64,000 nucleotides of DNA. It comes from Nanobdellati archaeon. Lineage in GTDB: Archaea > EX4484-52 > WAPT01. Shown here piece by piece: positions 1-51,507 of this stretch (position 1 is its first letter; each line of letters opens with the position of its first letter). The notes under the pieces were generated by a model. That model made no database searches. It was not told the DNA's origin and worked only from the letters and a program-made list of their open reading frames with translations. The stretch spans positions 12,645 to 76,644 of the forward strand of contig WAPT01000024.1 in NCBI GenBank assembly GCA_015520605.1. Reading direction: 5' to 3'. The translations under genes were made by a program, and so were the position numbers.

Positions 1-421
1 GTTCCCCTCCCTGAAACTCAATCCCAATGTATTTTTTGGGAAGTTTTTCAATGAACCTCACACAATCTCTCATGATTTCTCCGTCCATCTCCACGAACCT
101 TTCGGGTGAGGATTCCGCATGGCAATACCTACATGCAAGATTACACCTCAGCGTTAGATTTATCTGAACGGTCACCATCGGCATCGAATGAATATAGCCC
201 AACCTTTTAATTATGTTCTTCAACACCCTGTTGATATTTCCCTCCGTTATGACAATGTTTCTTTCTTCTAACTTTTTCAGAAGGTCATCACTCACCTCTC
301 CCCTCCTGAGCATCCTCAGCTCCTTTTTGTCCAGAATTATCCAGTCTCCGAATCTTGTGGTCAGGAGCACTTTTCCATTGCTTAATTTTTTCTCGAAACA
401 TTCATTGGGTAGGTAGCGCAT
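1..421 (-). CDS. Radical SAM protein (second of a tandem pair), 5'-partial at the window edge. The N-terminus is present; an ~90-aa extension precedes the CxxxCxxC motif and may be RRE/PqqD-like.
   Basis: Hand translation of the minus strand from ATG at 421 gives MRYLPNECFEKKLSNGKVLLTTRFGDWIILDKKELRMLRRGEVSDDLLKKLEERNIVI...LTLRCNLACRYCHAESSPERF. The C-x3-C-x2-C motif (CNLACRYC) is typical of radical SAM enzymes. A GGGTGGTGGG Shine-Dalgarno-like run lies directly upstream, 14 nt after the stop of the preceding radical SAM gene. The ORF runs off the window start. Confidence 0.6.
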   Translation of the reverse strand, partial: MRYLPNECFEKKLSNGKVLLTTRFGDWIILDKKELRMLRRGEVSDDLLKKLEERNIVITEGNINRVLKNIIKRLGYIHSMPMVTVQINLTLRCNLACRYCHAESSPERFVEMDGEIMRDCVRFIEKLPKKYIGIEFQGGE

Positions 422-435
422 CCCACCACCCTATT

Positions 436-1359
436 TTATTGGGTTATGGGCACGATTTCATCAGCGCCGAAGTAATCGATATAAGAGTACCATACCCCCC
501 AGCATTTACTCCTCATCACGCATTTCTCGCAGGGTTCCAGCAGCCCGTAATTGTCCTCGAAACGCCTGTTTATTATCTGTTTCGTGGGTGATTTGTAACC
601 GTAAATGGTCTTCGGCTGCGGTGCGACAAACCTCCACAGGTGTTCCGGAAGGACGCAGTAGGGGAACCCGTAGAACTTAACTCTCAGTCCCGAGCTTTCC
701 ACGATCTCCGCGGCTCTGCTGAGGTTTTCGGTGATATCCGTCATTCTCACCGCAAAGAGCTCGGCATTTCTCAGAGCGTTTCCCGTTATGTCGAGAGCAT
801 GGAAGGAAAAAGCTTTAACATCGTCAAACATGCTCAGCACAAGGCTTGCGATTCTCTCCAGCTCCGTATAGTTTGCTTTCGTGACTATCGTCTTCAGCTC
901 AACGTTCATCCCCGCATCGAGAGCGTTTCTCACACCATGAATTGTTTCTCTGAAGCTCCCTCTCGCTCCCGTGACCCAGTCGTGTTTTTCCTCCTTCCAG
1001 GAGTGAAGCGCCACTATAACATGAATTATAGGATAAGCTGAAAGTCTCTCGGCAAAACAGCGCGAAGATAACCTCCTGCCGTTGGTGAGGAGAACGTAAC
1101 TCAGCCCGGGCCTTCTCGATTTTATCCTCTCAAGTATCTCAAAGAAGTCGTTCCTCACGGTTGGCTCGCCACCGGAAATTTCAAGGATTTGTATGTCTTC
1201 TGGCAGTGAAAGAACAAAATTCACAAGCTCGTTGGTACTTATTTTTTCCTTTTTCGCCCTCTCTCCGGAGCTCACCGCGCATATTTTGCAGTTATTGTTG
1301 CACTGATACCCGAAAACACAGTAGGCCTTTTTTATTTTCATCGTGCTCATATTCTTCAC
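436..1359 (-). CDS. Radical SAM protein with a SPASM/twitch-like Cys-rich C-terminal domain; putative peptide-modifying maturase.
   Basis: The ORF-track protein contains CNNNCKIC (CxxxCxxC) near the N-terminus and a GGEP glycine-rich motif. The C-terminus reads ...GFPYC...EPCEKCVMRSKCWGVW (CX2CX5C), as in SPASM domains. The codon at 1359 is GTG; in-frame ATGs at 1350 and 1341 are alternative starts. Confidence 0.8.
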   Translation of the reverse strand: MKNMSTMKIKKAYCVFGYQCNNNCKICAVSSGERAKKEKISTNELVNFVLSLPEDIQILEISGGEPTVRNDFFEILERIKSRRPGLSYVLLTNGRRLSSRCFAERLSAYPIIHVIVALHSWKEEKHDWVTGARGSFRETIHGVRNALDAGMNVELKTIVTKANYTELERIASLVLSMFDDVKAFSFHALDITGNALRNAELFAVRMTDITENLSRAAEIVESSGLRVKFYGFPYCVLPEHLWRFVAPQPKTIYGYKSPTKQIINRRFEDNYGLLEPCEKCVMRSKCWGVWYSYIDYFGADEIVPITQ

Positions 1360-1413
1360 ACATGAATGAATGCAAACTGAACTGTCCTTCTCAACAAAAC
1401 CATCTGCGATATT

Positions 1414-1707
1414 TTAGTGTCCCCCATTACTCCAGTTACTCCAATCACACCATTCACTCCAATCGTGCCAGTTTATCCAGTTGTTCCAGTGGTTGTTCAA
1501 CCAGTTGTTGTACTCATTTTGGAGATCCTTCCAGCTCTGCTCGTTTGTAACGCAGTTATGGTGAGTGGATTGGGTGTGTGCAAGTTTTGAAAGGAGAGGG
1601 AGGGAACACACCGCAGTAAACAGGAGAAACATGTTCAGCGCCCCTTCACAGTCATCCTTGGATACCAGCATGGATCTCATTTTTCTAAACCGATCTCTCC
1701 AGCTCAT
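1414..1707 (-). CDS. Trp/Asn-rich repeat peptide; candidate RiPP precursor or secreted peptide. It has an N-terminal polar region, a hydrophobic signal-like segment, and a C-terminal (W-x-x)n core.
   Basis: The ORF-track protein ends ...NNWLNNHWNNWINWHDWSEWCDWSNWSNGGH. Trp recurs every third residue seven times in a row, mirrored in the DNA as CCA every 9 nt on the plus strand. Arg codons are AGA/CGG, matching genome usage. An AGGTG Shine-Dalgarno-like motif lies 8 nt upstream of ATG 1707. The gene sits 54 nt upstream of, and co-directional with, two radical SAM genes. The hydrophobic stretch MFLLFTAVCSLPLLSKLAHT resembles a Sec signal or TM segment. Confidence 0.45.
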   Translation of the reverse strand: MSWRDRFRKMRSMLVSKDDCEGALNMFLLFTAVCSLPLLSKLAHTQSTHHNCVTNEQSWKDLQNEYNNWLNNHWNNWINWHDWSEWCDWSNWSNGGH

Positions 1708-2056
1708 TCTCTACACCTTCATAATCTTCAGACTGTTTTGATATGTCCGGTATCACCCCCTTTATCGCCAGCTCCAGCAGGAGTTTTCTTACATCTCCAA
1801 ACCTGCGTAGATTCATCTCTTCCATCTCCGCCTGCAGCAGTTCAGCAAAGAACGCATCAATGAGTTCCTCTGTGTTCTCCCCTTCAGGCGGCTTTAACTC
1901 CACAGTGATCTCCTCGATACCGTCTCCGAGCACACGAACTCTGCATGTCTCAAGCATTCTGTATGCAGCTCTCATAACAGTGCTTTTTGAATAAAGTGTC
2001 GAAGGGAGCTTTATTTTAACAATACCGTCGGCAACTTCAACAGTTTTTTTATCCAT
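1685..2056 (-). CDS. Hypothetical 123-aa acidic protein in the pilin/rSAM array, with unknown function. The track ORF extends to a GTG at 2176.
   Basis: ORF-track frame 1685..2176 (GTG start). The first in-frame ATG is at 2056 and gives MDKKTVEVADGIVKIKLPSTLYSKSTVMRAAYRM... Its stop overlaps the start of the W-rich peptide gene, which is an operon-like arrangement. Confidence 0.45.
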   Translation of the reverse strand: MDKKTVEVADGIVKIKLPSTLYSKSTVMRAAYRMLETCRVRVLGDGIEEITVELKPPEGENTEELIDAFFAELLQAEMEEMNLRRFGDVRKLLLELAIKGVIPDISKQSEDYEGVENELERSV

Positions 2057-2115
2057 ATTCCGATTATGGAATGGGGAATTTTTATTTTTAATTGATGGAA
2101 AGGGATAACCCAGTA

Positions 2116-2316
2116 TCATTTCGGCAACAGACCGGCCACATACTTCCCAATACCCACGATCTTGCCAAGCCACCACCAGTTGGATTGAATGGCACTGATG
2201 ATGGGGGATGCCACAGTTTCAAGCAGGATGTATGCGAGGGCGATACAGAGTATAAACACGACAATATAAATTATCAGCATTATCTGCCCGCCGACCAGAG
2301 CCTTTCTTCTGACCAT
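2116..2316 (-). CDS. Small hydrophobic membrane protein (66 aa, two predicted TM segments).
   Basis: ORF-track protein MVRRKALVGGQIMLIIYIVVFILCIALAYILLETVASPIISAIQSNWWWLGKIVGIGKY. It has an ATG start and lies 12 nt downstream of the preceding small ORF on the same strand. Confidence 0.35.
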   Translation of the reverse strand: MVRRKALVGGQIMLIIYIVVFILCIALAYILLETVASPIISAIQSNWWWLGKIVGIGKYVAGLLPK

Positions 2317-2328
2317 AAAATCGACCTT

Positions 2329-2484
2329 TCAGCCTCCAGCCTTTTCCCAAGGGAGGTCTGCGAGACCGAAGATTTTGTCCACAGAACCTTTACCTAATTT
2401 TATTATTATAAGTACCACGGCAGTCATTAATAATATAATAAAGATGATCTCCACCCAGGAGAGACCTTTATTGCTTCCGCGCAT
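2329..2484 (-). CDS. Small class III signal peptide (archaeal type IV pilin-like) protein of 51 aa. It falls below the ORF-track size cutoff.
   Basis: Hand translation: MRGSNKGLSWVEIIFIILLMTAVVLIIIKLGKGSVDKIFGLADLPWEKAGG. It carries a KG|LSxxE prepilin-peptidase-type motif followed by a hydrophobic helix. Its ATG overlaps the TGA of the upstream pilin-like gene (TGATG). Confidence 0.45.
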   Translation of the reverse strand: MRGSNKGLSWVEIIFIILLMTAVVLIIIKLGKGSVDKIFGLADLPWEKAGG

Positions 2485-2990
2485 CAGCACTCACCTGTTT
2501 TCCCACAAGTAGAATTAATGACTATACATATGCTCTGACAATTATCTTTGGTAATTGTGATATTAGTTTCCTTACCGTCTGCGGGTGCGGTAATTTCTGC
2601 GGTGCAGGTGCCGTCATCGGACACGGTGCACTCAGCTTCCGGCTTATCATTCGATTTTATAGTTACCGTGCCGCTTGTGGTGCCTGTGAGTTTCAGGTTT
2701 ATAACGCACTTTCCATCGTTGTTCTTTGTTATGTCCTTCAGCTCAATTGAACATGATGTGCTGCTGCCACCCCCCACGGTTTCATTGACTTTCTCCCCTA
2801 TGCCCACGGTTGTCTGATTTATCGATTGTTTTGTGGATTTGAACGCAGGAAGCAGAGTACCGCCGTATACCCGTATTATAATCGCAGCCATTATCATGAG
2901 TATAAGAAGAATTATTATTATTTCCAAAAATGAAAGACCTTTTTTATACCAATCCCGTATGTTTTGTGTAAACATTTTGCGTTGGGGCAT
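2484..2990 (-). CDS. Archaeal type IV pilin-like protein with a class III signal peptide and a Thr/Cys-rich C-terminal domain.
   Basis: The ORF-track protein has ...YKKGLSFLEIIIILLILMIMAAII (KG|LSFLE, Glu at +5) followed by a Ser/Thr/Cys-rich secreted domain. Its start codon directly abuts the stop of the upstream gene. Confidence 0.6.
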   Translation of the reverse strand: MPQRKMFTQNIRDWYKKGLSFLEIIIILLILMIMAAIIIRVYGGTLLPAFKSTKQSINQTTVGIGEKVNETVGGGSSTSCSIELKDITKNNDGKCVINLKLTGTTSGTVTIKSNDKPEAECTVSDDGTCTAEITAPADGKETNITITKDNCQSICIVINSTCGKTGEC

Positions 2991-3194
2991 TTACCATTTA
3001 CCTCCTGTTATGTTCTTCATACCTTCCTGTACCGTCTGGTTAGATTTTTCTATACCCGAACTGACGAGTTCTCCGAACTTGTGCAGGTTGGCACCCCCTA
3101 TTTTAATAATAATATATCCCATAACCATGGCGATTATGATAACTATAACTATCCAGAACACCTTCTCAAAACCCTTTCGCACACTTGCCATCAA
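2991..3194 (-). CDS. Small membrane protein, possibly a minor pilin-like protein.
   Basis: ORF-track protein MMASVRKGFEKVFWIVIVIIIAMVMGYIII... It has an N-terminal RKG motif followed by a hydrophobic helix, and a 4-nt ATGA overlap with the upstream gene. Confidence 0.4.
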   Translation of the reverse strand: MMASVRKGFEKVFWIVIVIIIAMVMGYIIIKIGGANLHKFGELVSSGIEKSNQTVQEGMKNITGGKW

Positions 3195-3379
3195 ATCACC
3201 ACTCCGAATTTCGCCCTTGCAACATCCATAATTTTGTCAAAAATACTCTTTATTTTTTCATCAAGTTTAACATTCCAGTGTTTGAAAAGTACAATAAAAA
3301 TAAAGGTCAGAAACACAAGCAACAGTATAATAAACACAACTTCTATATGAGATGTGCCCTTCTTTCCCTGCTTGACCAT
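3191..3379 (-). CDS. Small class III signal peptide (pilin-like) protein.
   Basis: ORF-track protein MVKQGKKGTSHIEVVFIILLLVFLTFIFIVLF... It has a KG|TSHIE motif (Glu at +5) and is the first gene of the minus-strand array. Confidence 0.5.
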   Translation of the reverse strand: MVKQGKKGTSHIEVVFIILLLVFLTFIFIVLFKHWNVKLDEKIKSIFDKIMDVARAKFGVVI

Positions 3380-3557
3380 AACTTATAAATGTGATACTCA
3401 CCTTAAATATATTATGGTATTTCTCAGCACGAATAGTACAACATACAGAAAGGGTCTGCAGCTGTCGATATCTCTTCTCATAACTCTCCTGTTCGGAATC
3501 CTGCTCCTCTACGTGCTCTTTCACACAGCATTGACATATTTTGGAAGGTAGTGGTTC

Positions 3558-3773
3558 ATGCCGGGAGGCACATTTAAAAGAAGGAAAGGTCTTGAATTGG
3601 GCCTAACGGAATTCGGGCTGATAATGCTGGCACTTTTCATAGGTATGATTATTTTTGTTTTTTTGACCAAGGAAGGCGGATTTCTGGATAAAGTCAGAGA
3701 AACGGGATGCGACCTCAGCAGTTTCATAACAGGTTTTCTGAAAATCATCGGTATCAATACGTCCATTTGCTAA
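3558..3773 (+). CDS. Small pilin-like / class III signal peptide protein, divergent from the minus-strand array.
   Basis: The ORF-track protein has ...KRRKGLELGLTEFGLIMLALFIGMIIFVFL, with a KG motif followed by a hydrophobic helix. It is convergent with the IleRS gene. The antisense ORFs 3521..3766 and 3603..3785 were judged less likely. Confidence 0.4.
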   Translation: MPGGTFKRRKGLELGLTEFGLIMLALFIGMIIFVFLTKEGGFLDKVRETGCDLSSFITGFLKIIGINTSIC

Positions 3774-7305: not shown

Positions 7306-8229
7306 ATGAAAAACTACGAAAAAATTATGAAAAACATTGAACGGCTCGGTGAGAGATATTGCAGAAGATATCTTGACCCGTGGAACAAAGAAAGGTTGCA
7401 GACCAATTGGTGGGAAGCGCTAAAATTCCTTCTTAGCCATTCGTTTATGAGAGGAAGACGAGACAAATTGTCTAACGAATATTATTATTTTACCATTGAA
7501 ACTTTGAAAGATTATTTTTCCATCACTGATGGAGATCTGAACACATCTTATGAGAAGCTTAAAGAAAAGAAAAAATATTTTGACAAAGAATGTATTTTGA
7601 AGTTCAAGAAGAATAAAAATATTGGAAGAAAAAATAGCATTAAAGATCCAGATTTCAGGAAGGAAGTAGTAGGAAAAAATCCAATTGTAAAGCTTCTAAT
7701 TACTCCAAAAGAAGTCAAAGTAAAATGGGACAACAAAACTTACAATAAGGTAACTTGCTTAGGTAATGATGAAGATATAATGATGGTTCTTGATGTTTTG
7801 AAGCTCATTTCAGATGATGATAAGAAGAATATTTACAATTATTTAAGAGATGCGATTGTCAATTTCGGGGTTAAAGCAGCGTATGAAGAATTGATAAACA
7901 TAAGAGCTGTTTCAGATAAAATCTCCACTTTCATCATCAGAGATATTGTTTTAATGAATCCACAAATAAAAATGACATATGAGGACGCCAAATGGGCATT
8001 TCCTATGGATACGTGGGTAATTAAAATTGCCCATAAGTTAGGTTGTAATAGTGAAGATATCGAAAAAATCAAAAACCATCTAATTGATAGGTGTAGGGAA
8101 TTGGGGGTAGATCCGTTAAAGTTTGTAGCAGGGCTATGGTTCTTGGGTTACCATTCGCTTGATATATTGCTAGAAAATTGTATAGGAGAGATCAAAATTG
8201 GGGACATTACTTCGGATAGCATCGGATAA
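7306..8229 (+). CDS. Divergent HhH-GPD-superfamily (DNA glycosylase-like) protein, encoded in an AT-rich island.
   Basis: The ORF-track protein contains ...AVSDKISTFIIRDIVL...FPMDTWVIKIAHKLG. This resembles the helix-hairpin-helix plus catalytic-Asp motif (xPVDTHVxRV) of EndoIII/Ogg/AGOG-type glycosylases. The gene and its flanks (about 6974-8416) are markedly more AT-rich than the rest of the window. Confidence 0.45.
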   Translation: MKNYEKIMKNIERLGERYCRRYLDPWNKERLQTNWWEALKFLLSHSFMRGRRDKLSNEYYYFTIETLKDYFSITDGDLNTSYEKLKEKKKYFDKECILKFKKNKNIGRKNSIKDPDFRKEVVGKNPIVKLLITPKEVKVKWDNKTYNKVTCLGNDEDIMMVLDVLKLISDDDKKNIYNYLRDAIVNFGVKAAYEELINIRAVSDKISTFIIRDIVLMNPQIKMTYEDAKWAFPMDTWVIKIAHKLGCNSEDIEKIKNHLIDRCRELGVDPLKFVAGLWFLGYHSLDILLENCIGEIKIGDITSDSIG

Positions 8230-36699: not shown

Positions 36700-37806
36700 T
36701 TACCACTCTCGTTCTCGTTCAGAATGTTCTCGAAGATGCCCGCCGTCCAAAGAGTCGCACCATATTCTGCACGCGCCTTCAATACTTACCATGCACGGAC
36801 CCACGGGGTTGGACGGACTGCAAACCCTGCCGAAGAGAGGGCAGTCCTCCGGCGTTATGTTTGCTAGTAGAACGTCCCCACACCTGCAGAGTTTTTTAGC
36901 AGGATCCTCACGAAATTCGAACTTTTGAAAAATTTTCTCAAAAACCTTTTCAGCATCTCTATCCTCCCATTTCTTTTTGATCGTAGGTTTGCTGTTTTTT
37001 ATTTTTCCGAGTCCTCTCCACTCACAATCACAGCTTCCGAACACCATTCTTATGAGTTTCTTTGCCTCCACATTACCGTTTTCCCTCACAACACGTCCGT
37101 ACTGGTTGATCACATCCGTTTCTCCCTCTACCAAAAGATCAAGGACTATTTTTACCGACTCCAGCACATCGAGCGCTTCAAACCCGGAGACAACCATCGG
37201 GAGGGGAAAGCGACGGAGAATGCTTCTGTAAGGTCTGATGCCAGTTATGGCTGAAACGTGTCCCGGGCATATGAGAGCATCGACTTTCCTTTTTGTTGAA
37301 GATAGAAGCGCAGGTATCGCAGGTATGAAAAATCGATGAGCATTGAAAACATAAAAGTTGGAGGGCGCTTCCAGGATTGCTATTGCGGTTGAAGGCAGGG
37401 TGGTTTCAAACCCAACGGCTATGTGAACGATATCCTTGCTCTTATTTTTTTCGGCAATTTTCACCGCATCGAAAATGCTGTAGACGATTTTTATTTTTGA
37501 GCCTCCTGCCGTTGCAAGAGATATGCCGTGGTATTTCAGCTGCGAGACATCCCCAAAACAGGTTACTATCCCATCAAAATTCTCAATAAAATACAGAAAT
37601 CTTGCGATCTCTTCATCATTTATCACACATACAGGGCAGCCCGGACCCGGCACAAGCTTGATGCATGAAGGGACAATTTGCCTTATTCCGTATTTGGATA
37701 TTGTATTTTCGTGTGTTCCGCAAAGGGAAAGGATCGTGATGTTTTTCCCAACTGTGGATGCAAGGTTCCTGATCTCTTCGAGCAGTTTTTTTGCATCATT
37801 CCTCAT
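36700..37806 (-). CDS. hypD: Hydrogenase maturation factor HypD.
   Basis: GPGCPVCV and CPVC-type motifs, and a C-terminal CxxH... cluster. Confidence 0.93.
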   Translation of the reverse strand: MRNDAKKLLEEIRNLASTVGKNITILSLCGTHENTISKYGIRQIVPSCIKLVPGPGCPVCVINDEEIARFLYFIENFDGIVTCFGDVSQLKYHGISLATAGGSKIKIVYSIFDAVKIAEKNKSKDIVHIAVGFETTLPSTAIAILEAPSNFYVFNAHRFFIPAIPALLSSTKRKVDALICPGHVSAITGIRPYRSILRRFPLPMVVSGFEALDVLESVKIVLDLLVEGETDVINQYGRVVRENGNVEAKKLIRMVFGSCDCEWRGLGKIKNSKPTIKKKWEDRDAEKVFEKIFQKFEFREDPAKKLCRCGDVLLANITPEDCPLFGRVCSPSNPVGPCMVSIEGACRIWCDSLDGGHLREHSEREREW

Positions 37807-37975
37807 GAACGTCCCTCACCTTTTCTATGGCAAAACCGGCATGCACCACCACTTTGTCCCCCACCTTGACGTCTGGTACGAGATCTACACGCACAAATCT
37901 TCTTGCCCCTCCAAAATTCACGAGAGCTTCCTTTTCCTTGATTTTTTCAACAATTCCCACGACACCAATACACAT
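37796..37975 (-). CDS. hypC: Hydrogenase maturation factor HypC (59 aa, absent from the ORF track).
   Basis: Hand translation: MCIGVVGIVEKIKEKEALVNFGGARRFVRVDLVPDVKVGDKVVVHAGFAIEKVRDVHEE. This is the canonical MC-start HypC. It overlaps the hypD start by 11 nt. Confidence 0.85.
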   Translation of the reverse strand: MCIGVVGIVEKIKEKEALVNFGGARRFVRVDLVPDVKVGDKVVVHAGFAIEKVRDVHEE

Positions 37976-38029
37976 AATCAGATATTTTTTCAGAAAATAC
38001 TAATTAACTTTTTGCAAATAATCTGTTAG

Positions 38030-40381
38030 ATGGATGCATGGAGAATTATCATAAAAGGAACAGTTCAGGGTGTTGGCTTTAGACCGACTGTTGCCAGAGT
38101 GGCACGAAAACTGAAAGCGAGAGGGTATGTCAGAAACCTTGGAGGAGGGGAGGTTGAAATAGTGACCGATTTTCACCCTGAGAAATTTATCGAGAAACTA
38201 TACAATAACCTTCCGAGACTTGCGAGGATTGAGGAAGTAAGGGCGGAAAAGATCAGCACATATTCCTTGCCGGATCCTTTCGCAATTCTTAAGAGCACAT
38301 CTTTTTCCTCAGAGGTCGAAGAAACGATAAGACTGCCTCCTCCCGATGCGGCGATATGTGAGATTTGCCTTGCGGAGGTATTTTCGGAGGACAACAGAAG
38401 ATACCTGTATGCTTTCACTTCCTGTACTGCCTGCGGACCGAGGTTTACAGCGTTTCTTGGACTTCCCTTCGACAGGGAGAATACAACTTTTGGCTCTTTC
38501 CCGCTCTGTGCAGATTGCACCAGAGAATACGAGGATGAAATTAACAGAAGGTACCATGCACAGACCACGTGCTGTCCTGTGTGTGGGCCAACATATTCCT
38601 TGGTATCATCCGGTGGCAAAACTATCGCAGAAGGTCTTGAAGCCATAAGGATGGCCGCCAGAATGGTGGATGATGGCGAGATTCTAGCTGTGAAGGGATG
38701 GGGAGGTTATCACCTTGTCTGCGACGCGGAAAAAGATGGTAGTGTCAGCAGATTGAGGGAGAAGTTGAAGAGGCTCCAACAACCATTCGCAATAATGGCG
38801 AGGGATATGAATGCGGTTAAGAGGATCTGCATCCTTAATGAGCGGGAAGCGGAGGAACTTTCCAGTCCAGCAAGGCCGATCGTGATCCTGAGAAAGAAGG
38901 AACCATCCATTATGAAGGAGGTGGCTCCCATGCTTCACACTCTTGGTATGATGCTCCCTTATTCGGCGCTACATCACATTTTGTTTTCACATCTCAATAC
39001 AGACTTCATTGTGGTTACATCTGCAAACCTTCCCGGAGAACCAATGATGATCGACGAAAAGATAATCAAAAAAATCAAAGTGGATGCCTATCTCATCCAC
39101 AATTTGAGGATAGCGAACAGGTGCGATGACTCCGTTCTCAGGGTGGTTGATGAAAGAAGGGTTTTTGTGAGGAGATCTAGAGGTTTCGTACCATTTTCCC
39201 TCGAGCTTGGAAAAAAGACTAACGCTCTCTGCCTTGGGGCGGAACTTTTCAATTCAGTATGTTTCGTCAAAAACGGCAGAGCGTATCTCAGTCAGTATCT
39301 CGGAGACACTTCAAATTACCTCACCTACAAAGAGCATTTCATCCCCACCATCCAGAAATGGAGAAAATGGCTCTCCCTCGATAAGTGTGATGCAATTGTG
39401 TGTGACCTCCATCCCTCTTACACCACAACCTTCTTTGCGGAAAACGTTGCGGAGAGTCTTGATATCCCTCTCTACAGACTTCAGCATCACTTTGCACATG
39501 CGATGGGAGTGATGTTCGAGCATAACCTTGAGAGAGCTGTTGCTATATGCTGTGATGGCACTGGATACGGTTTGGATGGCGGTGTGTGGGGTGGGGAAGT
39601 CCTTTATATTGATTTTGAAAAACATGAGTTTGCGCGTGTCGGCCGCCTTGAAAATTTCCATCTTGTCGGAGGAGATAGTGCAACTCTAAATCCGAGAAGG
39701 ATAGGAGCATCCCTGCTTTTCTTAGCAGGGATGGAAAAAGAGGCGGCAGCACTTCTTGAGGAAAAGGAAAGGGAACTCGTCATGGCAGCCATCCAGAACA
39801 AAATAAATGTGGTGGAGTGTTCCTCAGCAGGCAGAGTTTTTGATGGTGTGGCATCAATCCTTAACATTTACAATAAGAGAACTTATGAGGGCGAGGGGGC
39901 AATGAAACTTGAGACCATGGCATCTCTGGCGGAGGGGAAATGCAAGGAAGTTGAGAGCTTAAAACCAAAAATCGCAACCACACAGGAAGCTACAAGATAC
40001 AGGAACCCTTACTTAATGGAAGGATGTGAAGGAAATCCGCGAGCAACACAATTTCCGATAAAGGTACTTAAAATTTCGAAATTAATAAAAGAAGCTTTTG
40101 AAAAATTGAAAGAAGGATGGGAGATGGAAAGGATAGCCTTCGAAACGTTTTCTTATGTAGGGCGGGGACTTGCCACAATAGCCGTTGAGACAGCAAAGAG
40201 ACGTAACTGTAAAATAATTCTCGCTGGAGGATGTATGGTAAATCCCATCTTTGTGGAAAGCATTATGAATGTTACGAGAACTGGTGGGGTTGAAACAGCA
40301 CTCCCTCAAGAAGTGCCCATTGGAGATAACGGGATAAGTATGGGACAGGCGTATTTGCTCAAATTCGTTGAGACGAGGTGA
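38030..40381 (+). CDS. hypF: Carbamoyltransferase HypF.
   Basis: Acylphosphatase domain (VQGVGFRP), two Zn-finger CxxC pairs, and YrdC and Kae1-like domains. Confidence 0.93.
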   Translation: MDAWRIIIKGTVQGVGFRPTVARVARKLKARGYVRNLGGGEVEIVTDFHPEKFIEKLYNNLPRLARIEEVRAEKISTYSLPDPFAILKSTSFSSEVEETIRLPPPDAAICEICLAEVFSEDNRRYLYAFTSCTACGPRFTAFLGLPFDRENTTFGSFPLCADCTREYEDEINRRYHAQTTCCPVCGPTYSLVSSGGKTIAEGLEAIRMAARMVDDGEILAVKGWGGYHLVCDAEKDGSVSRLREKLKRLQQPFAIMARDMNAVKRICILNEREAEELSSPARPIVILRKKEPSIMKEVAPMLHTLGMMLPYSALHHILFSHLNTDFIVVTSANLPGEPMMIDEKIIKKIKVDAYLIHNLRIANRCDDSVLRVVDERRVFVRRSRGFVPFSLELGKKTNALCLGAELFNSVCFVKNGRAYLSQYLGDTSNYLTYKEHFIPTIQKWRKWLSLDKCDAIVCDLHPSYTTTFFAENVAESLDIPLYRLQHHFAHAMGVMFEHNLERAVAICCDGTGYGLDGGVWGGEVLYIDFEKHEFARVGRLENFHLVGGDSATLNPRRIGASLLFLAGMEKEAAALLEEKERELVMAAIQNKINVVECSSAGRVFDGVASILNIYNKRTYEGEGAMKLETMASLAEGKCKEVESLKPKIATTQEATRYRNPYLMEGCEGNPRATQFPIKVLKISKLIKEAFEKLKEGWEMERIAFETFSYVGRGLATIAVETAKRRNCKIILAGGCMVNPIFVESIMNVTRTGGVETALPQEVPIGDNGISMGQAYLLKFVETR

Positions 40382-41415
40382 GCGTGATGAGCTGGCAGGA
40401 GAGGGTAGGTGACGTGGGAGATGGTGGGAGAAGAATGATGGAATTTCTTGAAAAGTACATTTTTCCGAAAATTAATGTAGAGAGCAGAGAGGATGCGGGA
40501 ATAGTGAACGAAGATTTCATCATAACAACCGATAGTTACACTATTAAGCCCATAATTTTTCCCGGCGGCAGTATAGGGAAGCTTGCCATCTGCGGGTCAG
40601 CAAATGATGTAGCCGTGATGGGCGCAAAACCTACATACTTTCTTCTATCTTTAATAGCAGACGAGAACCTTGAGATGAACAAGTTTTTGCATGTTGTTGA
40701 AGATATCTCGAAATATCTGAGAGAGATTGATGGCAGGATGCTTGGCGGAGATCTCAAAACACTTAAGGGAGATGGAGAGGAAATTTATGTAAATACCACA
40801 TGCATAGGAACGCGAAACAGATGGCTTGAATTAAATCTCGAAGTGGTGAGAAATTATCGCAACTATCCACACTCATGGATAAGGAATTGTGGCGCTGGAG
40901 AGGACGAGGTGGTGATAATAACTGGAAACATCGCGGAGCACGCCACAGCAATTTTGCTTGCAAGGGAGGAGCTTGGTTTCCAGCTGGATGTATCCTCGGA
41001 TTGCAAACATCTATGGTTTCCAATAAGAAAAGCGATGGAGGAGGGTGGCATAACGGCAATGAAAGATGCTACTCGCGGTGGTATTGCGTCTGCGCTCAAC
41101 GAGATAGCGGAGCAAAGCGGTGTGGGTATGGTAATTGAGGAAAACAAAATACCAATAAGGGAAGAGGTAAGGAGTTTCTGCGAGGTGCTTGGACTTGATC
41201 CCTATGCAATGGCAAACGAGGGTGTGAGTGTGATGACCGTTGTGCGGGAAATGGCTGAGGATGTGCTTGAAGCTCTTCACAAAGCGGGAGAGAAAAATGC
41301 GAGGATTGTGGGCTACACAACCGCAGAACATAGAGAGGTTATTCTGAGAACCGAGCTTGGAAGCGAGAGAATTCTTCATATGCCTTACGGAAGCACAGTG
41401 CCCAGAATATGTTGA
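40378..41415 (+). CDS. hypE: Hydrogenase maturation factor HypE.
   Basis: PurM-like fold with the conserved C-terminal ...PRIC. Confidence 0.9.
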   Translation: MSVMSWQERVGDVGDGGRRMMEFLEKYIFPKINVESREDAGIVNEDFIITTDSYTIKPIIFPGGSIGKLAICGSANDVAVMGAKPTYFLLSLIADENLEMNKFLHVVEDISKYLREIDGRMLGGDLKTLKGDGEEIYVNTTCIGTRNRWLELNLEVVRNYRNYPHSWIRNCGAGEDEVVIITGNIAEHATAILLAREELGFQLDVSSDCKHLWFPIRKAMEEGGITAMKDATRGGIASALNEIAEQSGVGMVIEENKIPIREEVRSFCEVLGLDPYAMANEGVSVMTVVREMAEDVLEALHKAGEKNARIVGYTTAEHREVILRTELGSERILHMPYGSTVPRIC

Positions 41416-44104: not shown

Positions 44105-45868
44105 ATGCTGGTGGGTGAAGTTTTCGGCAAGACCGGTACCAAAACCTTCCAGTTTCGAGCTTACAAGGAGGTCAACAGAATGGATTTTGTTACTGTGAAG
44201 AGTGTTGATGACCACTGGCTTCTCTGCCGGATTGAGGATGTGGAGATGTATCCTGACGGTAAGATAATCGGCAAAGCAAGGATAATCGGTTACAGAGAAG
44301 ATGGGATACTGAAGATCCCAAAGGTCCCCATTAAGCCCAACAGCCTTGTTTACAAAGCAGACAAGGGAATCATAACTGAAGTTCTCAATTTGAAAATGGA
44401 CGGCCTTTACATAGGCGTGCTTGAGGCTAATGAGGATGTGAAGGTATACCTTGATCCGCAGGAGCTCATATCAAAGCATGTTGCCGTGCTTGCCGCCACC
44501 GGATCGGGTAAGTCTTACACGGTCGGTGTGCTCATAGAGGAGATAGCGGAGAGGAGGATTCCGATCGTGGTGATCGATCCCCATGGCGAGTACACATCCA
44601 TGAGGTTTCCGAATGATCAGAAGGATGTTAAGGCTTTCAAGAAATTTGGAGTGAATCCGAAGGGTTATGATGTGCAACACTACAGCCCCGATCCCCGCGT
44701 TAACCCCGGTGCTATGCAGCTCAGCTTTGGTTACGATGAGATAGATCCGAGAGAGATAGGCATGCTGTTTCCCTCAAAGCCCACAGCTTCTCAGCTCGCC
44801 TTGCTTTATGCGGCTTTTAAGAGAATAAAATCCACAAAAAAGAACTTCACACTCGATGATATTATAGCGGATGTGGAACAGAGTCAGAGCCAGAGCAAGT
44901 GGAACGTAATAAACATGCTCGAGATGCTGAAGGATATGAGAATTTTCAGCGGGAATCCCACCCCCGTCACAAAACTGGTGGTGCCGGGAAAGATAACCGT
45001 TATTAACCTGAGAGGGGTAACGCAAGAAGTTCAGGCCTACGTCGTGTACAAGATGGTTGAAAGGTTGTTCGAAGCAAGAAAAATAGGGATGATAAATCCA
45101 TGTTTCCTTGTGATTGAGGAAGCGCACAACTTCGTGCCGCAGAGCGAGGCAAAGATAAGCTCAAAGATAATAAAAAACGTTGCTTCCGAAGGAAGGAAGT
45201 TCGGTTTGGGGCTTTGTGTAATAAGCCAGAGACCGGCAAGGATAGACAAGAACGTGCTGAGCCAGTGCAACACACAGATAATCCTAAGGATGATGAATCC
45301 AAACGATTTGAAAGCTGTGAGCTATGCTGAAGGGCTTAGCGCTGAGCTGGAGAAGGAGATAAAGAACCTCAACACAGGCACCGCTCTTATGATAGGGCAG
45401 GAATTTCCCATCATAGTTAAGATAAGGGTCAGGAGGAGCAAGCACGGCGGAACAACTCAAGACGTTACGGAGCAGAGAGAAAATACGATCCCAATATTCC
45501 TACCTCTCAAACCAGTTCAGCACGTGCCGTCTGGAAGCAAGGTTTACTATCCCTGCTGGGTTTTCAATTCTGAGGGGAAGCGCTATGTTATGGACGCGGT
45601 ACAGGGTAAGTTCCTCTTCTTTGATGGAAACGTCGTCAGAGAGCAAAACGGAAGTGGGAGTATATTAGAAATGAATATAGAGCACGGCACAGAAGAGATT
45701 GTCGGTAGAGTTATAAGGGCTGAAATAGGTCACAAACGGGCATTGAGCATCGGGAAGAAATTCTTTGGCAGAATTGATAGTGTACAACTTGTTTACTATC
45801 CTTACATTGTAACGGAGGATGAGCTCATCGATCTTGTAACCGGAGCGATGAAAAAGTTGGGAAGATAA
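44105..45868 (+). CDS. HerA-like / DUF87 P-loop ATPase (FtsK-HerA superfamily).
   Basis: N-terminal barrel-like segment, Walker A (AVLAATGSGKSY) and Walker B (...LVIEEAHNF). No NurA-like partner is present in the window. Confidence 0.75.
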   Translation: MLVGEVFGKTGTKTFQFRAYKEVNRMDFVTVKSVDDHWLLCRIEDVEMYPDGKIIGKARIIGYREDGILKIPKVPIKPNSLVYKADKGIITEVLNLKMDGLYIGVLEANEDVKVYLDPQELISKHVAVLAATGSGKSYTVGVLIEEIAERRIPIVVIDPHGEYTSMRFPNDQKDVKAFKKFGVNPKGYDVQHYSPDPRVNPGAMQLSFGYDEIDPREIGMLFPSKPTASQLALLYAAFKRIKSTKKNFTLDDIIADVEQSQSQSKWNVINMLEMLKDMRIFSGNPTPVTKLVVPGKITVINLRGVTQEVQAYVVYKMVERLFEARKIGMINPCFLVIEEAHNFVPQSEAKISSKIIKNVASEGRKFGLGLCVISQRPARIDKNVLSQCNTQIILRMMNPNDLKAVSYAEGLSAELEKEIKNLNTGTALMIGQEFPIIVKIRVRRSKHGGTTQDVTEQRENTIPIFLPLKPVQHVPSGSKVYYPCWVFNSEGKRYVMDAVQGKFLFFDGNVVREQNGSGSILEMNIEHGTEEIVGRVIRAEIGHKRALSIGKKFFGRIDSVQLVYYPYIVTEDELIDLVTGAMKKLGR

Positions 45869-50286: not shown

Positions 50287-51507
50287 TTATCTCAAGATGG
50301 TGGCGAGCTTTATCAGCTTCGGTCTCCTCAGAAGGATTTTGGCAAGCTTTCTCAGGTTCTTGCCTCCGGCAAAATCAATTATATCCTGAACTGTCAGCTC
50401 ATCAGCCAGGAAATTGAGGTCGTCATCGCTCATCCTTTCTATTACCTGCCTGAGTTTCTCAATCCTCCTGAGCTTTTCTCCCCTTTCCTTCCACCACAGC
50501 TCGTTAAACTTCGCTAAAGCATCATGACTGACATCCTCCCTATTCAGACACTCACAAATTACTTCAGCGGCTATCTCTCCGGCTCTCGTACCCTCATCCA
50601 TGCCTCCGCCGTGTATGGGATTTACTGTATGGGCAGCATCACCAATAACAACAAATCCGTCCCTCACCATGTCCTTGAGCAACCCTCCAACAGGTATGCC
50701 GCCGGCGTTCTCCTCTATTACGCTTGCATCAGCAAAAATCTCTGGATGGTTCTCTATCCATGAGTCAAGGTACTCCTTTGCTTTTCTCTTGACTCCAGCC
50801 CCTCCCCCTATTCCTATGCCCACGTTCGCAACATGGTCTCCCTTGGGGAATATCCAGATGTAGCCTCTTGGAGCAATCTCGTTGCCGAGATAGAAGTAAA
50901 GCTTGTTTGCGTCTTTCAGCTTTAAGTTAGCCATCTCGTACTGGTAGCCGCTATCCACATTGATAAGCTTATTTGTGTTGTCTATGCCGGCTTTTCTTGC
51001 CATTTTCCCCTCTATACCCTCGGCTGAAACGACCACCCTGGCCTTTACCTCAAAGACATCTTCCCCGTACTTGATAACAACACCGCTTATTGCTCCATTA
51101 TCCTTAAGCAGATCTACTACCTCTATCTTGGTGAATACCTTTGCTCCGGCTTTGGCGGCATCATAAGCTAAGAATTTATCGAAAACCTTCCTCTCAACCA
51201 CACAACCTTGGGGTGAACCGTAATCCATCACGAATTCCTTGCCGTTTGGAGCGTAAAGGTAAAAGCCATCAATGTACTGTGCAACAAACCTTTCATTACC
51301 GTTATAACCCATTCTCTGCAGAGCCTTGACACCTATGCCCTCCGCACATCTCTTGGGTGAGCCTATCTCAGCCCTCTTCTCAAACACCGCAACGCTGAGA
51401 CCTCTATCAGCTATCAGCTTAGCACACCTGCTCCCAGCTGGACCTGCACCTATGACAACAACATCGTAAGCGTTTTTTAAACCAACAGGCCTAGGGATTT
51501 CGATCAC
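50287..51507 (-). CDS. Geranylgeranyl reductase (digeranylgeranylglycerophospholipid reductase).
   Basis: FAD-binding motif VVVIGAGPAGS and GGR family features. Confidence 0.88.
   Translation of the reverse strand: MIEIPRPVGLKNAYDVVVIGAGPAGSRCAKLIADRGLSVAVFEKRAEIGSPKRCAEGIGVKALQRMGYNGNERFVAQYIDGFYLYAPNGKEFVMDYGSPQGCVVERKVFDKFLAYDAAKAGAKVFTKIEVVDLLKDNGAISGVVIKYGEDVFEVKARVVVSAEGIEGKMARKAGIDNTNKLINVDSGYQYEMANLKLKDANKLYFYLGNEIAPRGYIWIFPKGDHVANVGIGIGGGAGVKRKAKEYLDSWIENHPEIFADASVIEENAGGIPVGGLLKDMVRDGFVVIGDAAHTVNPIHGGGMDEGTRAGEIAAEVICECLNREDVSHDALAKFNELWWKERGEKLRRIEKLRQVIERMSDDDLNFLADELTVQDIIDFAGGKNLRKLAKILLRRPKLIKLATILR

Follow-up and report, generated by a model that had tools for sequence, protein, structure and literature searches.

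The stretch of DNA analysed here (the window) comprises 64,000 nucleotides of an uncultivated Nanobdellati archaeon (contig WAPT01000024.1, positions 12,645 to 76,644 of the forward strand) and begins with a gene array that combines radical S-adenosylmethionine (SAM) maturation proteins of the Hxs kind, a tryptophan-repeat precursor and a series of small pilin-like proteins. Nine co-directional open reading frames (ORFs) run on the minus strand from 3379 to 1, with the coordinates given in a preliminary description of the same DNA, and all nine were also found by an independent gene caller on contig L001 of the European Nucleotide Archive, which derives from the same organism. In the direction of transcription they encode five small pilin-like proteins, an HxsD-like accessory protein, the precursor, an HxsC-like enzyme and an HxsB-like enzyme. 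The first two genes overlap by TGATG at 3191, the stop codon TAA of the second is immediately followed by the ATG of the third (2991/2990), and another TGATG at 2484 joins the third and fourth genes. Gaps of 12 nt and 59 nt separate the fourth gene (2329-2484) from the fifth (2116-2316) and the fifth from the HxsD-like start at 2056. The HxsD-like gene (1685-2056) shares 23 nt with the precursor gene (1414-1707), which is separated by 54-63 nt from the HxsC-like start at 1359 or 1350, and the HxsC-like and HxsB-like (421) genes are 14 nt apart. The limits given in the preliminary description had to be amended at two points: the ORF described at 2991-3194 exists, but the gene caller starts it at ATG 3191 and not at TTG 3194, and the unit does not end at base 1, since on L001 the genes run on past the window start. 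A TATA-like A/T box lies about 20 nt 5' of the HxsD-like start, so that a second promoter within the unit is possible. The spacer between the precursor and hxsC shows no significant RNA structure (z = 0.49), which leaves an attenuator at this position unsupported.

The three maturation proteins find their best matches among the families of the Hxs system. The 123-aa protein encoded at 1685-2056 (minus strand), a genuine ORF that had been listed as a protein of unknown identity, is HxsD-like: it matches NCBIfam TIGR03976 with 33.2 bits (E = 5.2e-8; cut-off 50), and the precomputed Pfam assignment PF27806:HxsD is found, without a mark of weakness, on the identical gene and on all orthologues. 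The gene at 436-1359 (minus strand) encodes an HxsC-like radical SAM enzyme of 304 aa, counted from ATG 1350. It matches TIGR03977 with 182.8 bits, against an equivalog cut-off of 267.9, with HxsC4 as the next family at 83 bits, and Pfam Radical_SAM with 72.8 bits. The enzyme has a CxxxCxxC motif at C17, C21 and C24, and alignments reveal four invariant cysteines in its C-terminal part (C232, C274, C277 and C283). Its earlier assignment as a radical SAM/SPASM enzyme therefore holds for the radical SAM domain only, as no Pfam SPASM match is present. The gene at 1-421 (minus strand) represents the first 140 codons of an HxsB-like radical SAM/SPASM protein of 461 aa, the remainder of which lies beyond the window start. 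The 140-aa fragment scores 74.7 bits against TIGR03978 and the full-length protein, recovered from L001, 250.2 bits (cut-off 370), covering profile positions 7-452 of 466. This is its best match; lesser NCBIfam matches are PapB (143 bits), QhpD (113 bits) and DynA (108 bits). A SPASM match of 24.2 bits in the full-length protein falls mostly outside the window. The closest solved relatives of the HxsB-like enzyme are CteB and anSME, maturases of peptides or proteins, while ChlB is matched in the Protein Data Bank (PDB) with 38.9 bits only.

The profile searches thus place HxsB, HxsC and HxsD first, with the next-best families scoring far lower, which supports the suggestion made in the preliminary description of a system like those for peptides that are made by the ribosome and modified after translation (RiPPs), and like Hxs in particular. 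Judged from these scores, the cassette HxsD - precursor - HxsC - HxsB is clearly of the Hxs kind and just as clearly lies outside the curated equivalogs. Housekeeping cofactor maturases (MoaA, NirJ, AhbD and PqqE) were considered as candidates and rejected, as all score far below HxsB and HxsC. The analogy to darobactin and dynobactin maturases, which had also been drawn, holds in a generic sense, but membership was rejected as well (DynA, 108 bits against a cut-off of 450; DarW, 64 against 650 bits). In PADLOC only a generic radical SAM similarity at the level of viperins is found.

The precursor (1414-1707, minus strand) is a protein of 97 aa and the apparent analogue of HxsA. Ten tryptophans are present, nine of them within the last 39 residues, and between W74 and W92 seven tryptophans follow each other at an exact spacing of three, with N, N, D, E, D, N and N at the respective +2 positions. 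The N-terminal part consists of a basic leader (residues 1-17), an acidic patch, a G22-ALN junction and a hydrophobic segment (23-39). It is followed by a linker with a conserved cysteine (C52), by (W-x-[NDE])x7 at 74-94 and by a GGH end. The precursor thus contains an aromatic-X-X motif of three residues, and no match to it exists in Pfam, NCBIfam or PADLOC. Across lineages the retained features are a basic amphipathic leader, MSxR[DE][KR]h[KR]K..., the acidic patch, Gly-[AV]-[LV]-N and about 17 hydrophobic residues, next to a linker usually carrying a 'CV' motif and a tryptophan-rich tail usually carrying one cysteine (WCDW or HCW). The orthologues have 6-9 repeats, as counted by eye from translations, compared to seven in the window, and in the precursors of the Nanohalarchaeota type and of the 321-kb Joint Genome Institute (JGI) contig L094 the tail is W-x-W-x rather than W-x-x. 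Although the HxsC-like enzymes of these lineages are only 34-62% identical where measured, the precursors retain their tryptophan positions, conserved cysteine, G-[AV]-[LV]-N junction and hydrophobic segment. The tryptophan-rich ORF stands, with its tryptophan register, beside these enzymes in every related locus, and the doubt raised earlier, that it might lack conservation in related genomes, is thereby removed. By the positive-inside rule the leader would be cytoplasmic and the tail directed outwards, and export of the precursor probably follows its modification in the cytoplasm.

All five small proteins encoded upstream of the HxsD-like gene have class III-like N-termini, here taken as an uncharged hydrophobic stretch preceded by a [KR][GA] pair; the preliminary description had recognized three of them as pilin-like, and these three are retained. 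In the sequences given below, a slash stands before the hydrophobic stretch. The first protein (62 aa, 3191-3379, minus strand) begins with MVKQGKKG/TSHIEVVFIILLL, has a glutamate at position +5, and is present as orthologues in L004 and L006; it was identified as an ORF, in the gene calls and in the N-terminus scan. The second (2991-3194, minus strand) has 66 or 67 aa, ATG 3191 being a likelier start than TTG 3194, and begins with MASVRKG/FEKVFWIVIVIIIAM. Similar N-termini of the type K[GA]xSQxxW[IV]I occur in proteins of 96 aa in L094 and 97 aa in L095. The third, of 168 aa (2484-2990, minus strand; ORF and N-terminus scan), contains KKG/LSFLEIIIILL, again with Glu at +5, and a cysteine-rich all-beta domain. 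A single-sequence AlphaFold2 (AF2) model with a predicted local distance difference test (pLDDT) score of 62 places a helix at residues 21-46 (pLDDT about 88) before eight strands. The fourth (51 aa, 2329-2484, minus strand; MRGSNKG/LSWVEIIFIILL) is the last of the three with Glu at +5. The fifth, a small membrane or pilin-like protein of 66 aa (2116-2316, minus strand; MVRRKA/LVGGQIMLIIYIVVF), has orthologues of 87 aa in L004, 82 aa in L006 and probably 89 aa in L007. Both of the latter proteins were found as ORFs, in the gene calls and in the N-terminus scan. In size, the small subunits resemble Flp or helix-only pilins.

Two further pilin-like ORFs are located on the plus strand, divergent from the main unit. 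A mini pilin-like ORF of 45 aa (3414-3551, MVFLSTNSTTYRKG/LQLSISLLITLLFGILLLYVLF), which was obtained by translation and is absent from the gene calls, has a class III-like N-terminus and counterparts at the same place in L004 (MKKAG/LSVSLLL...) and L006 (MKKA/SLQLL...). The ORF at 3558-3773 encodes a protein of 71 aa, MPGGTFKRRKG/LELGLTEFGLIMLALFIG, which is annotated on L001, L004 and L006. Its N-terminus is likewise class III-like, its TEFGLI resembles the Flp motif by eye, and no match is found in Pfam or NCBIfam. In L094 an apparent homologue of 73 aa, recognized from a similar N-terminus and position, is also divergent from the pilin operon. The two divergent units are separated by a putative bidirectional promoter of 34 nt (3380-3413), recognized from its sequence, in which the TATA-like boxes TTATAAAT (3383-3390) and TTAAATATAT (3403-3412) are arranged back to back. 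Each box lies about 24 nt 5' of the start codon that it faces, which suggests leaderless divergent transcripts, and both boxes are kept in L004.

Within the window, such N-termini are clustered in this region. Seven are found within 2116-3773 (1.7 kb), compared to nine in the other 62 kb of the window, most of the latter being, in our judgement, internal starts or spurious ORFs. The seven ORFs in 2116-3773 also combine a short charged N-region, a [KRDE][GA] site and a hydrophobic H-domain. Each full locus with a tryptophan-type precursor contains 5-11 class III-like N-termini, and the 9.8-kb contig L012 contains three, one of which belongs to the membrane protein described below; in other Hxs-like loci, scanned as a control, 0-4 were found, mostly spurious. 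In archaeal pilins, processing sites with either an acidic or a basic residue followed by Gly or Ala are known (PMC4371748), and the K/R/D-G/A sites observed here agree with those of the characterised archaeal pilins (Table 1 of PMC4371748).

Beyond the window start, L001 shows two additional components. The hxsB-like gene is followed, with an overlap of 4 nt, by the translationally coupled gene of a polytopic membrane protein of 272 aa, the conserved part of which is the C-terminal soluble domain and final helix. With 25.6 and 27.7 bits, two of its homologues exceed the threshold of Pfam Arc_PepC (23.4 bits), and a third is borderline. Arc_PepC is the C-terminal domain of archaeal A24 prepilin peptidases. 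A role of the membrane protein as an active prepilin peptidase was rejected, since the alignments lack a conserved Asp pair, and for this reason it is not called a peptidase here. A profile search of the PDB with this protein found nothing, and its hhalign comparison with an A24-like protein of the candidate phyla radiation (CPR) was insignificant. Converging on the membrane protein gene is an operon that encodes proteins of 145, 164, 228 and 739 aa. Three of these four have a [KR][GA] pair and a hydrophobic stretch at the N-terminus; the 145-aa protein does not, but its homologues in L007 and L095 do. The 739-aa family is cysteine-rich, has a strongly conserved C-terminal motif (C..KYxHRYxLKxLKIxVxIxD...W.P..L.F.VN.NVDDN.C) and carries fn3/Ig-like domains in L012 and L095. 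A quartet of rising size with a large, adhesin-like last member recalls sets of minor pilins. The membrane protein gene and the gene of 600-740 aa overlap tail-to-tail by 50 nt in L001 (13081-13130) and L004 (13029-13078), and by 33 nt in L007 (12975-13007).

The whole module occurs in at least six divergent archaeal lineages, in differing genomic contexts and in two gene arrangements. In L004 and L006, with HxsC-like enzymes of 62% and 47% identity, it adjoins the gene of isoleucyl-tRNA synthetase (IleRS), as it does in the window. In L007, L092 and L093 (HxsC 44% identical) the neighbours are genes of ribonuclease P (RNase P) subunits, a GatB-domain protein (GatB/GatE-type), Rpb7 and Spt4, and only one small upstream gene is present. 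More distant relatives are found in L012, L095 and further homologues labelled Nanohalarchaeota in NCBI (HxsC 34% identical), and in L094. L001, L004, L006, L007/L092/L093, L012, L095 and L094 all retain the gene order D - precursor - C - B - membrane protein, and the convergent quartet lies beside it throughout. In L094 and L095 no small pilin-like genes lie upstream of hxsD; instead they head the convergent operon, where they are followed by the 145, 164, 228 and 739 families. The parts thus stay adjacent through rearrangement and change of context, which argues that the link between pilin-like proteins and radical SAM cassette is not due to chance. The tryptophan-repeat peptide and tandem radical SAM enzymes are co-conserved in related archaeal loci, as had been anticipated, and the coupling of the cassette to class III-signal genes, which had been noted as unusual, proves to be conserved in these six or more lineages and specific to the tryptophan-type sub-family.

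The module is also rare. Among 1.84 billion representative proteins, searched exhaustively with phmmer, the precursor has three true relatives; word-indexed searches returned three relatives for the 739-aa protein and four close ones for the HxsC-like enzyme, and a scan of JGI metagenomes added three further loci. No relatives were found among the IMG/VR viral contigs, and a search of a species-representative genome set with four HxsC sequences retrieved nothing closer than 34% identity. A tryptophan-repeat Hxs-like cassette beside about ten pilin-like proteins is a combination that we have not found described in the literature.

Several related loci differ in their accessory genes. In L012 (1020-2069, minus strand) and L095 (6113-7162, minus strand) a Peptidase_U32-family gene is inserted on the opposite strand between hxsD and the precursor. 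U32 proteins include O2-independent hydroxylases, so that a further modification might be added in these two loci. A UPPS-like prenyltransferase and a geranylgeranyl reductase adjoin the module in two distant lineages (L006, 16556-19882; L095, 3201-5123), which could be a remnant of synteny or point to a functional connection with carriers of envelope lipids or glycans. In Hxs-like loci of DPANN and CPR organisms, His-x-Ser repeat peptides with prepilin-like leaders comparable to that of the precursor (...EEGxISK...G/A followed by a hydrophobic stretch) are encoded at L014 5194-5535, L019 9612-9866, L022 8723-9004 and L024 10878-11246, and Peptidase_A24-like neighbours are present at L019 7415-8563 and L010 8864-9961 (24-25 bits; cut-off 26.5). 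A link of Hxs-type targets to prepilin-type processing may therefore be general.

The bacterial system of the same kind, HXS, is an antiphage system in which the processing and modification of HxsA require each of HxsB, HxsC and HxsD (PMC13128918). The modification amounts to +8 Da on SHRSS in addition to an N-terminal cleavage; HxsC binds HxsD, and the periplasm is where matured HxsA counters the entry of phage DNA (PMC13128918). HXS is found to 99.7% in Pseudomonadota and has the order D-B-C-A in 99.6% of cases (PMC13128918); its components correspond to NCBIfam TIGR03976-03979 (Haft & Basu 2011, as cited in PMC9062424). The archaeal module shares with HXS the pair of radical SAM enzymes best matching HxsB and HxsC, the small HxsD-like partner, and a target that carries a signal for export or anchoring at its N-terminus and, at its C-terminus, repeats of three residues based on an aromatic one. 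In bacteria, the HXS target has been demonstrated to mature in the cytoplasm before it is exported, as is also proposed here. Unlike in HXS, the repeat is W-x-[NDE] instead of the H-x-S of HxsA, and no HxS repeat is present in the precursor, which also lacks a peptidoglycan-binding domain, as judged from the absence of any domain match. Further differences are the gene order (D-A-C-B instead of D-B-C-A), the shorter HxsC-like enzyme (304 aa), the archaeal host, a context that is not a defence island, and the presence of an additional Arc_PepC-like membrane protein and about ten pilin-like proteins.

Other known systems share single elements with the module. Radical SAM cyclophane synthases act on aromatic-X-X motifs, including repeated WPR motifs in conjunction with a small chaperone (PMC11499958, PMC11851443). 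The triceptides and related cyclophane RiPPs, which are made by enzymes that form three-residue cyclophanes (3-CyFEs: XncB, HaaB, HtkB, YhhB and ChlB) or, on W-x-K/R, by WgkB and WprB, have in common with the present system the repeated aromatic-X-X unit, a radical SAM/SPASM maturase and, in some cases, the requirement for a chaperone of about 100 aa (WprC). They differ in employing one radical SAM enzyme instead of two and in that the precursor described here has a hydrophobic membrane-targeting segment; the maturases of the present module do not belong to their families (YhhB, 75 bits against a cut-off of 445; WgkB, 75 against 650). QhpD, known with QhpC from the maturation of the gamma subunit of quinohemoprotein amine dehydrogenase, is a radical SAM/SPASM enzyme that cross-links a small protein containing Cys, Asp, Glu and Trp in the cytoplasm before export, and is similar in this respect. 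However, the HxsB-like enzyme reaches only 113 bits against the QhpD cut-off of 453, the precursor has one or two conserved cysteines, and dehydrogenase genes are absent here. With archaeal type IV pilins the small proteins share a short charged N-terminus, a [KRD]-[GA] site before a hydrophobic helix of about 20 residues, in some cases Glu at +5, Flp-like sizes, and the occurrence of several minor-pilin-like proteins per operon. We know of no pilin with radical SAM maturase partners.

Taken together, Hxs-type cytoplasmic maturation of an exported tryptophan-repeat protein, which works with co-inherited pilin-like proteins at the cell surface, is the reading that we favour and regard as rather probable; the precursor is most likely a cross-linked, tryptophan-rich component of a pilin-like surface assembly. 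The homology to HxsD, HxsC and HxsB, the conservation of the tryptophan register and of the gene neighbourhood, and the class III-like N-termini are observed directly, whereas the kind of modification, the site of processing, export, assembly with the pilin-like proteins and the function in the cell are inferred. In the proposed mechanism, the 97-aa precursor would be made with its basic leader, Gly-Ala-Leu-Asn junction, single hydrophobic segment and (Trp-x-Asn/Asp/Glu)x7 tail. In the cytoplasm the HxsD-like and HxsC-like proteins would together, with the HxsB-like radical SAM/SPASM enzyme alongside, covalently modify the tryptophan tail. As W-x-[NDE] matches the aromatic-X-X units of the cyclophane synthases, one side-chain cross-link per unit is predicted; the likeliest chemistry would be cross-links on the W-x-X3 units of about -2 Da each, possibly involving the conserved cysteine. 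The Arc_PepC-like polytopic membrane protein may then receive or escort the modified precursor at the membrane, the leader would be removed at the glycine, and the tryptophan-rich tail of the mature protein would end up outside the cell. Together with about ten class-III-signal proteins, i.e., the tiny helix-only subunits and the 145/164/228/739-aa quartet, the mature protein might form a pilus-like or envelope-anchored assembly. The more specific possibility of a type-IV-filament-like archaeal organelle, in which the subunit tail is a radical SAM cross-linked poly-tryptophan rod, is put forward tentatively and is itself doubtful. If it were true, a pilin or filament component would for the first time have been found to be matured by radical SAM enzymes, and a rigid or stacked tryptophan array could act as an adhesin tip of exceptional stability, as a cap that blocks viruses or as an aromatic element that conducts electrons.

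A number of observations speak against this reading. All three Hxs matches are below the NCBI equivalog cut-offs, and the sole chemical datum for the Hxs family is the unexplained +8 Da (PMC13128918), which is unlike a simple cross-link of -2 Da. The residue before the glycine of the precursor is acidic or neutral instead of basic, and the leader, at about 22 aa, exceeds the usual length of prepilin leaders, so that a plain signal-anchor is equally possible. A related tryptophan-repeat peptide in L009 has neither a hydrophobic segment nor pilin-like neighbours. The AF2 model of the membrane protein (pLDDT 49) is unusable, and the missing Asp pair weighs in the same direction. The small proteins have no match to curated pilin, class III or Flp hidden Markov models (HMMs) in Pfam and NCBIfam; the 168-aa protein reaches Pfam N_methyl at E = 0.081 only. 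No pilin was retrieved when PDB sequences were searched with profiles of the 145-aa and 164-aa families, and the 168-aa model has no significant match in Foldseek, where generic beta-sandwiches are found (best E = 0.064) and a Pyrobaculum pilus occurs at rank 28 (E = 0.23). Moreover, the 10 kb on either side in L001, L004, L006, L007 and L095 encode neither a PilB/FlaI ATPase nor a PilC/FlaJ platform nor a catalytic A24 peptidase, and no assembly ATPase, platform or catalytic prepilin peptidase was found among the ten large ORFs of the window that were tested. The term 'pilin-like' is used here because of these missing HMM, profile and fold matches and because of the missing assembly genes nearby.

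The same absence of pilin HMM and fold matches, of an ATPase and platform, and of the catalytic Asp in the A24-like membrane protein would be expected if the small proteins were single-pass, N-terminally anchored membrane proteins and the locus encoded a membrane complex joined by the modified tryptophan-repeat protein, with no filament being formed. This explanation, which overlaps with the favoured one except for filament formation, appears rather unlikely to us. It does not account for the [KR]-[GA] pair that immediately precedes the hydrophobic stretch in almost all members and in each lineage, for the three members with Glu at +5, for the ordered quartet of rising size with the large adhesin-like protein last, or for the helix and beta-domain layout of the modelled 168-aa member, and archaeal pilin genes are often unlinked to pilB and pilC (PMC4371748).

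The main rival in terms of function is an archaeal counterpart of the HXS antiphage system, in which the matured and exported tryptophan-repeat protein and the pilin-like proteins would form an envelope barrier or decoy that keeps viruses from adsorbing or their genomes from entering. Pili serve many archaeal viruses as receptors. Among the relatives, only HxsABCD has been characterised; it is antiphage, with an effector acting outside the cytoplasmic membrane (PMC13128918), and in L009 the tryptophan-repeat peptide and HxsC/B-like pair lie among putative defence-type genes, as judged from Pfam domains. We nevertheless hold an antiviral role to be unlikely. The neighbourhood with IleRS and HIT-family genes is conserved in three genomes despite an identity of only 47-62% between their HxsC-like proteins, and the L007 module lies among the RNase P, GatB-domain, Rpb7 and Spt4 genes; such housekeeping contexts fit vertical inheritance better than a mobile defence island. 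The basic HxS repeats, for which DNA binding has been proposed, are replaced by an acidic or neutral tryptophan tail, and the mechanism proposed for bacteria is thus not directly transferable. In addition, PADLOC detects nothing beyond the viperin-level similarity, and in contrast to HXS, which occurs in 27% of Klebsiella genomes, the system is exceedingly rare. An ordinary RiPP cluster, in which leader and hydrophobic segment are cut off and a small cross-linked tryptophan peptide with an antimicrobial or signalling function is set free, the pilin-like proteins being unrelated neighbours or a pseudopilus-like exporter, agrees with the classical layout of a small precursor just before tandem radical SAM enzymes and a small accessory protein, with the peptide maturases that follow HxsB among the matches of the HxsB-like enzyme and its solved relatives CteB and ChlB, and with Trp-x-x motifs as known cyclophane synthase substrates, but is quite improbable in view of the lack of a dedicated catalytic leader protease or ABC exporter in any locus, of a hydrophobic segment and glycine junction that are conserved to a degree unusual for a removable leader, and of the quartet adjacency that survives rearrangement and change of context, which makes unrelated neighbours unlikely.

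The module extends the Hxs type from proteobacterial defence islands, where its function was worked out only in 2026, to Archaea, with tryptophan replacing histidine in the repeat. The seven alike W-x-N/D/E units offer a compact test case for the chemistry of HxsB/HxsC-type enzymes, in which any mass shift should scale with the number of repeats. No pilus or archaeal surface structure has been described in which radical SAM protein modification is connected with class-III-signal proteins. Comprising about 15 genes, the conserved module belongs to poorly known archaeal lineages that probably come from hydrothermal habitats; for the organism of the window, the name of the ENA sample hints at a hydrothermal metagenome. 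As almost no structural protein of the module has a detectable homologue, it could explain an uncharacterised cell-surface structure.

The related locus in L009 (7254-11352) encodes an 81-aa tryptophan-repeat peptide, WTDWSNWQNWDDWGQWGQWSAWDNAD, together with the HxsC/B-like pair and a third, convergent radical SAM enzyme. The called start of its HxsC-like enzyme excludes the CxxxCxxC motif, and a variant of 343 aa exists. The surrounding genes encode a DUF1156-domain methyltransferase-like protein, a helicase, a protein of 1074 aa without a Pfam match, a PIN/MazE pair and an EVE-domain protein, which from their Pfam domains are putatively defence-related.

In the remainder of the window, an ORF of 307 aa without a Pfam match (7306-8229, plus strand) lies between the IleRS and HIT-family genes, and in L004 an unannotated gene of 283 aa occupies the corresponding place. 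The window further contains an archaeal ribosomal protein operon, the uL3 of which is closest to that of Thermococcus among solved ribosomes, as well as genes for HerA (44105-45868) and a geranylgeranyl reductase (50287-51507). The genes hypD, hypF and a hypE-like gene of the AIR-synthase family are located at 36700-41415, and the presence of these hyp genes suggests an archaeon with a hydrogenase that is probably not a minimal symbiont.

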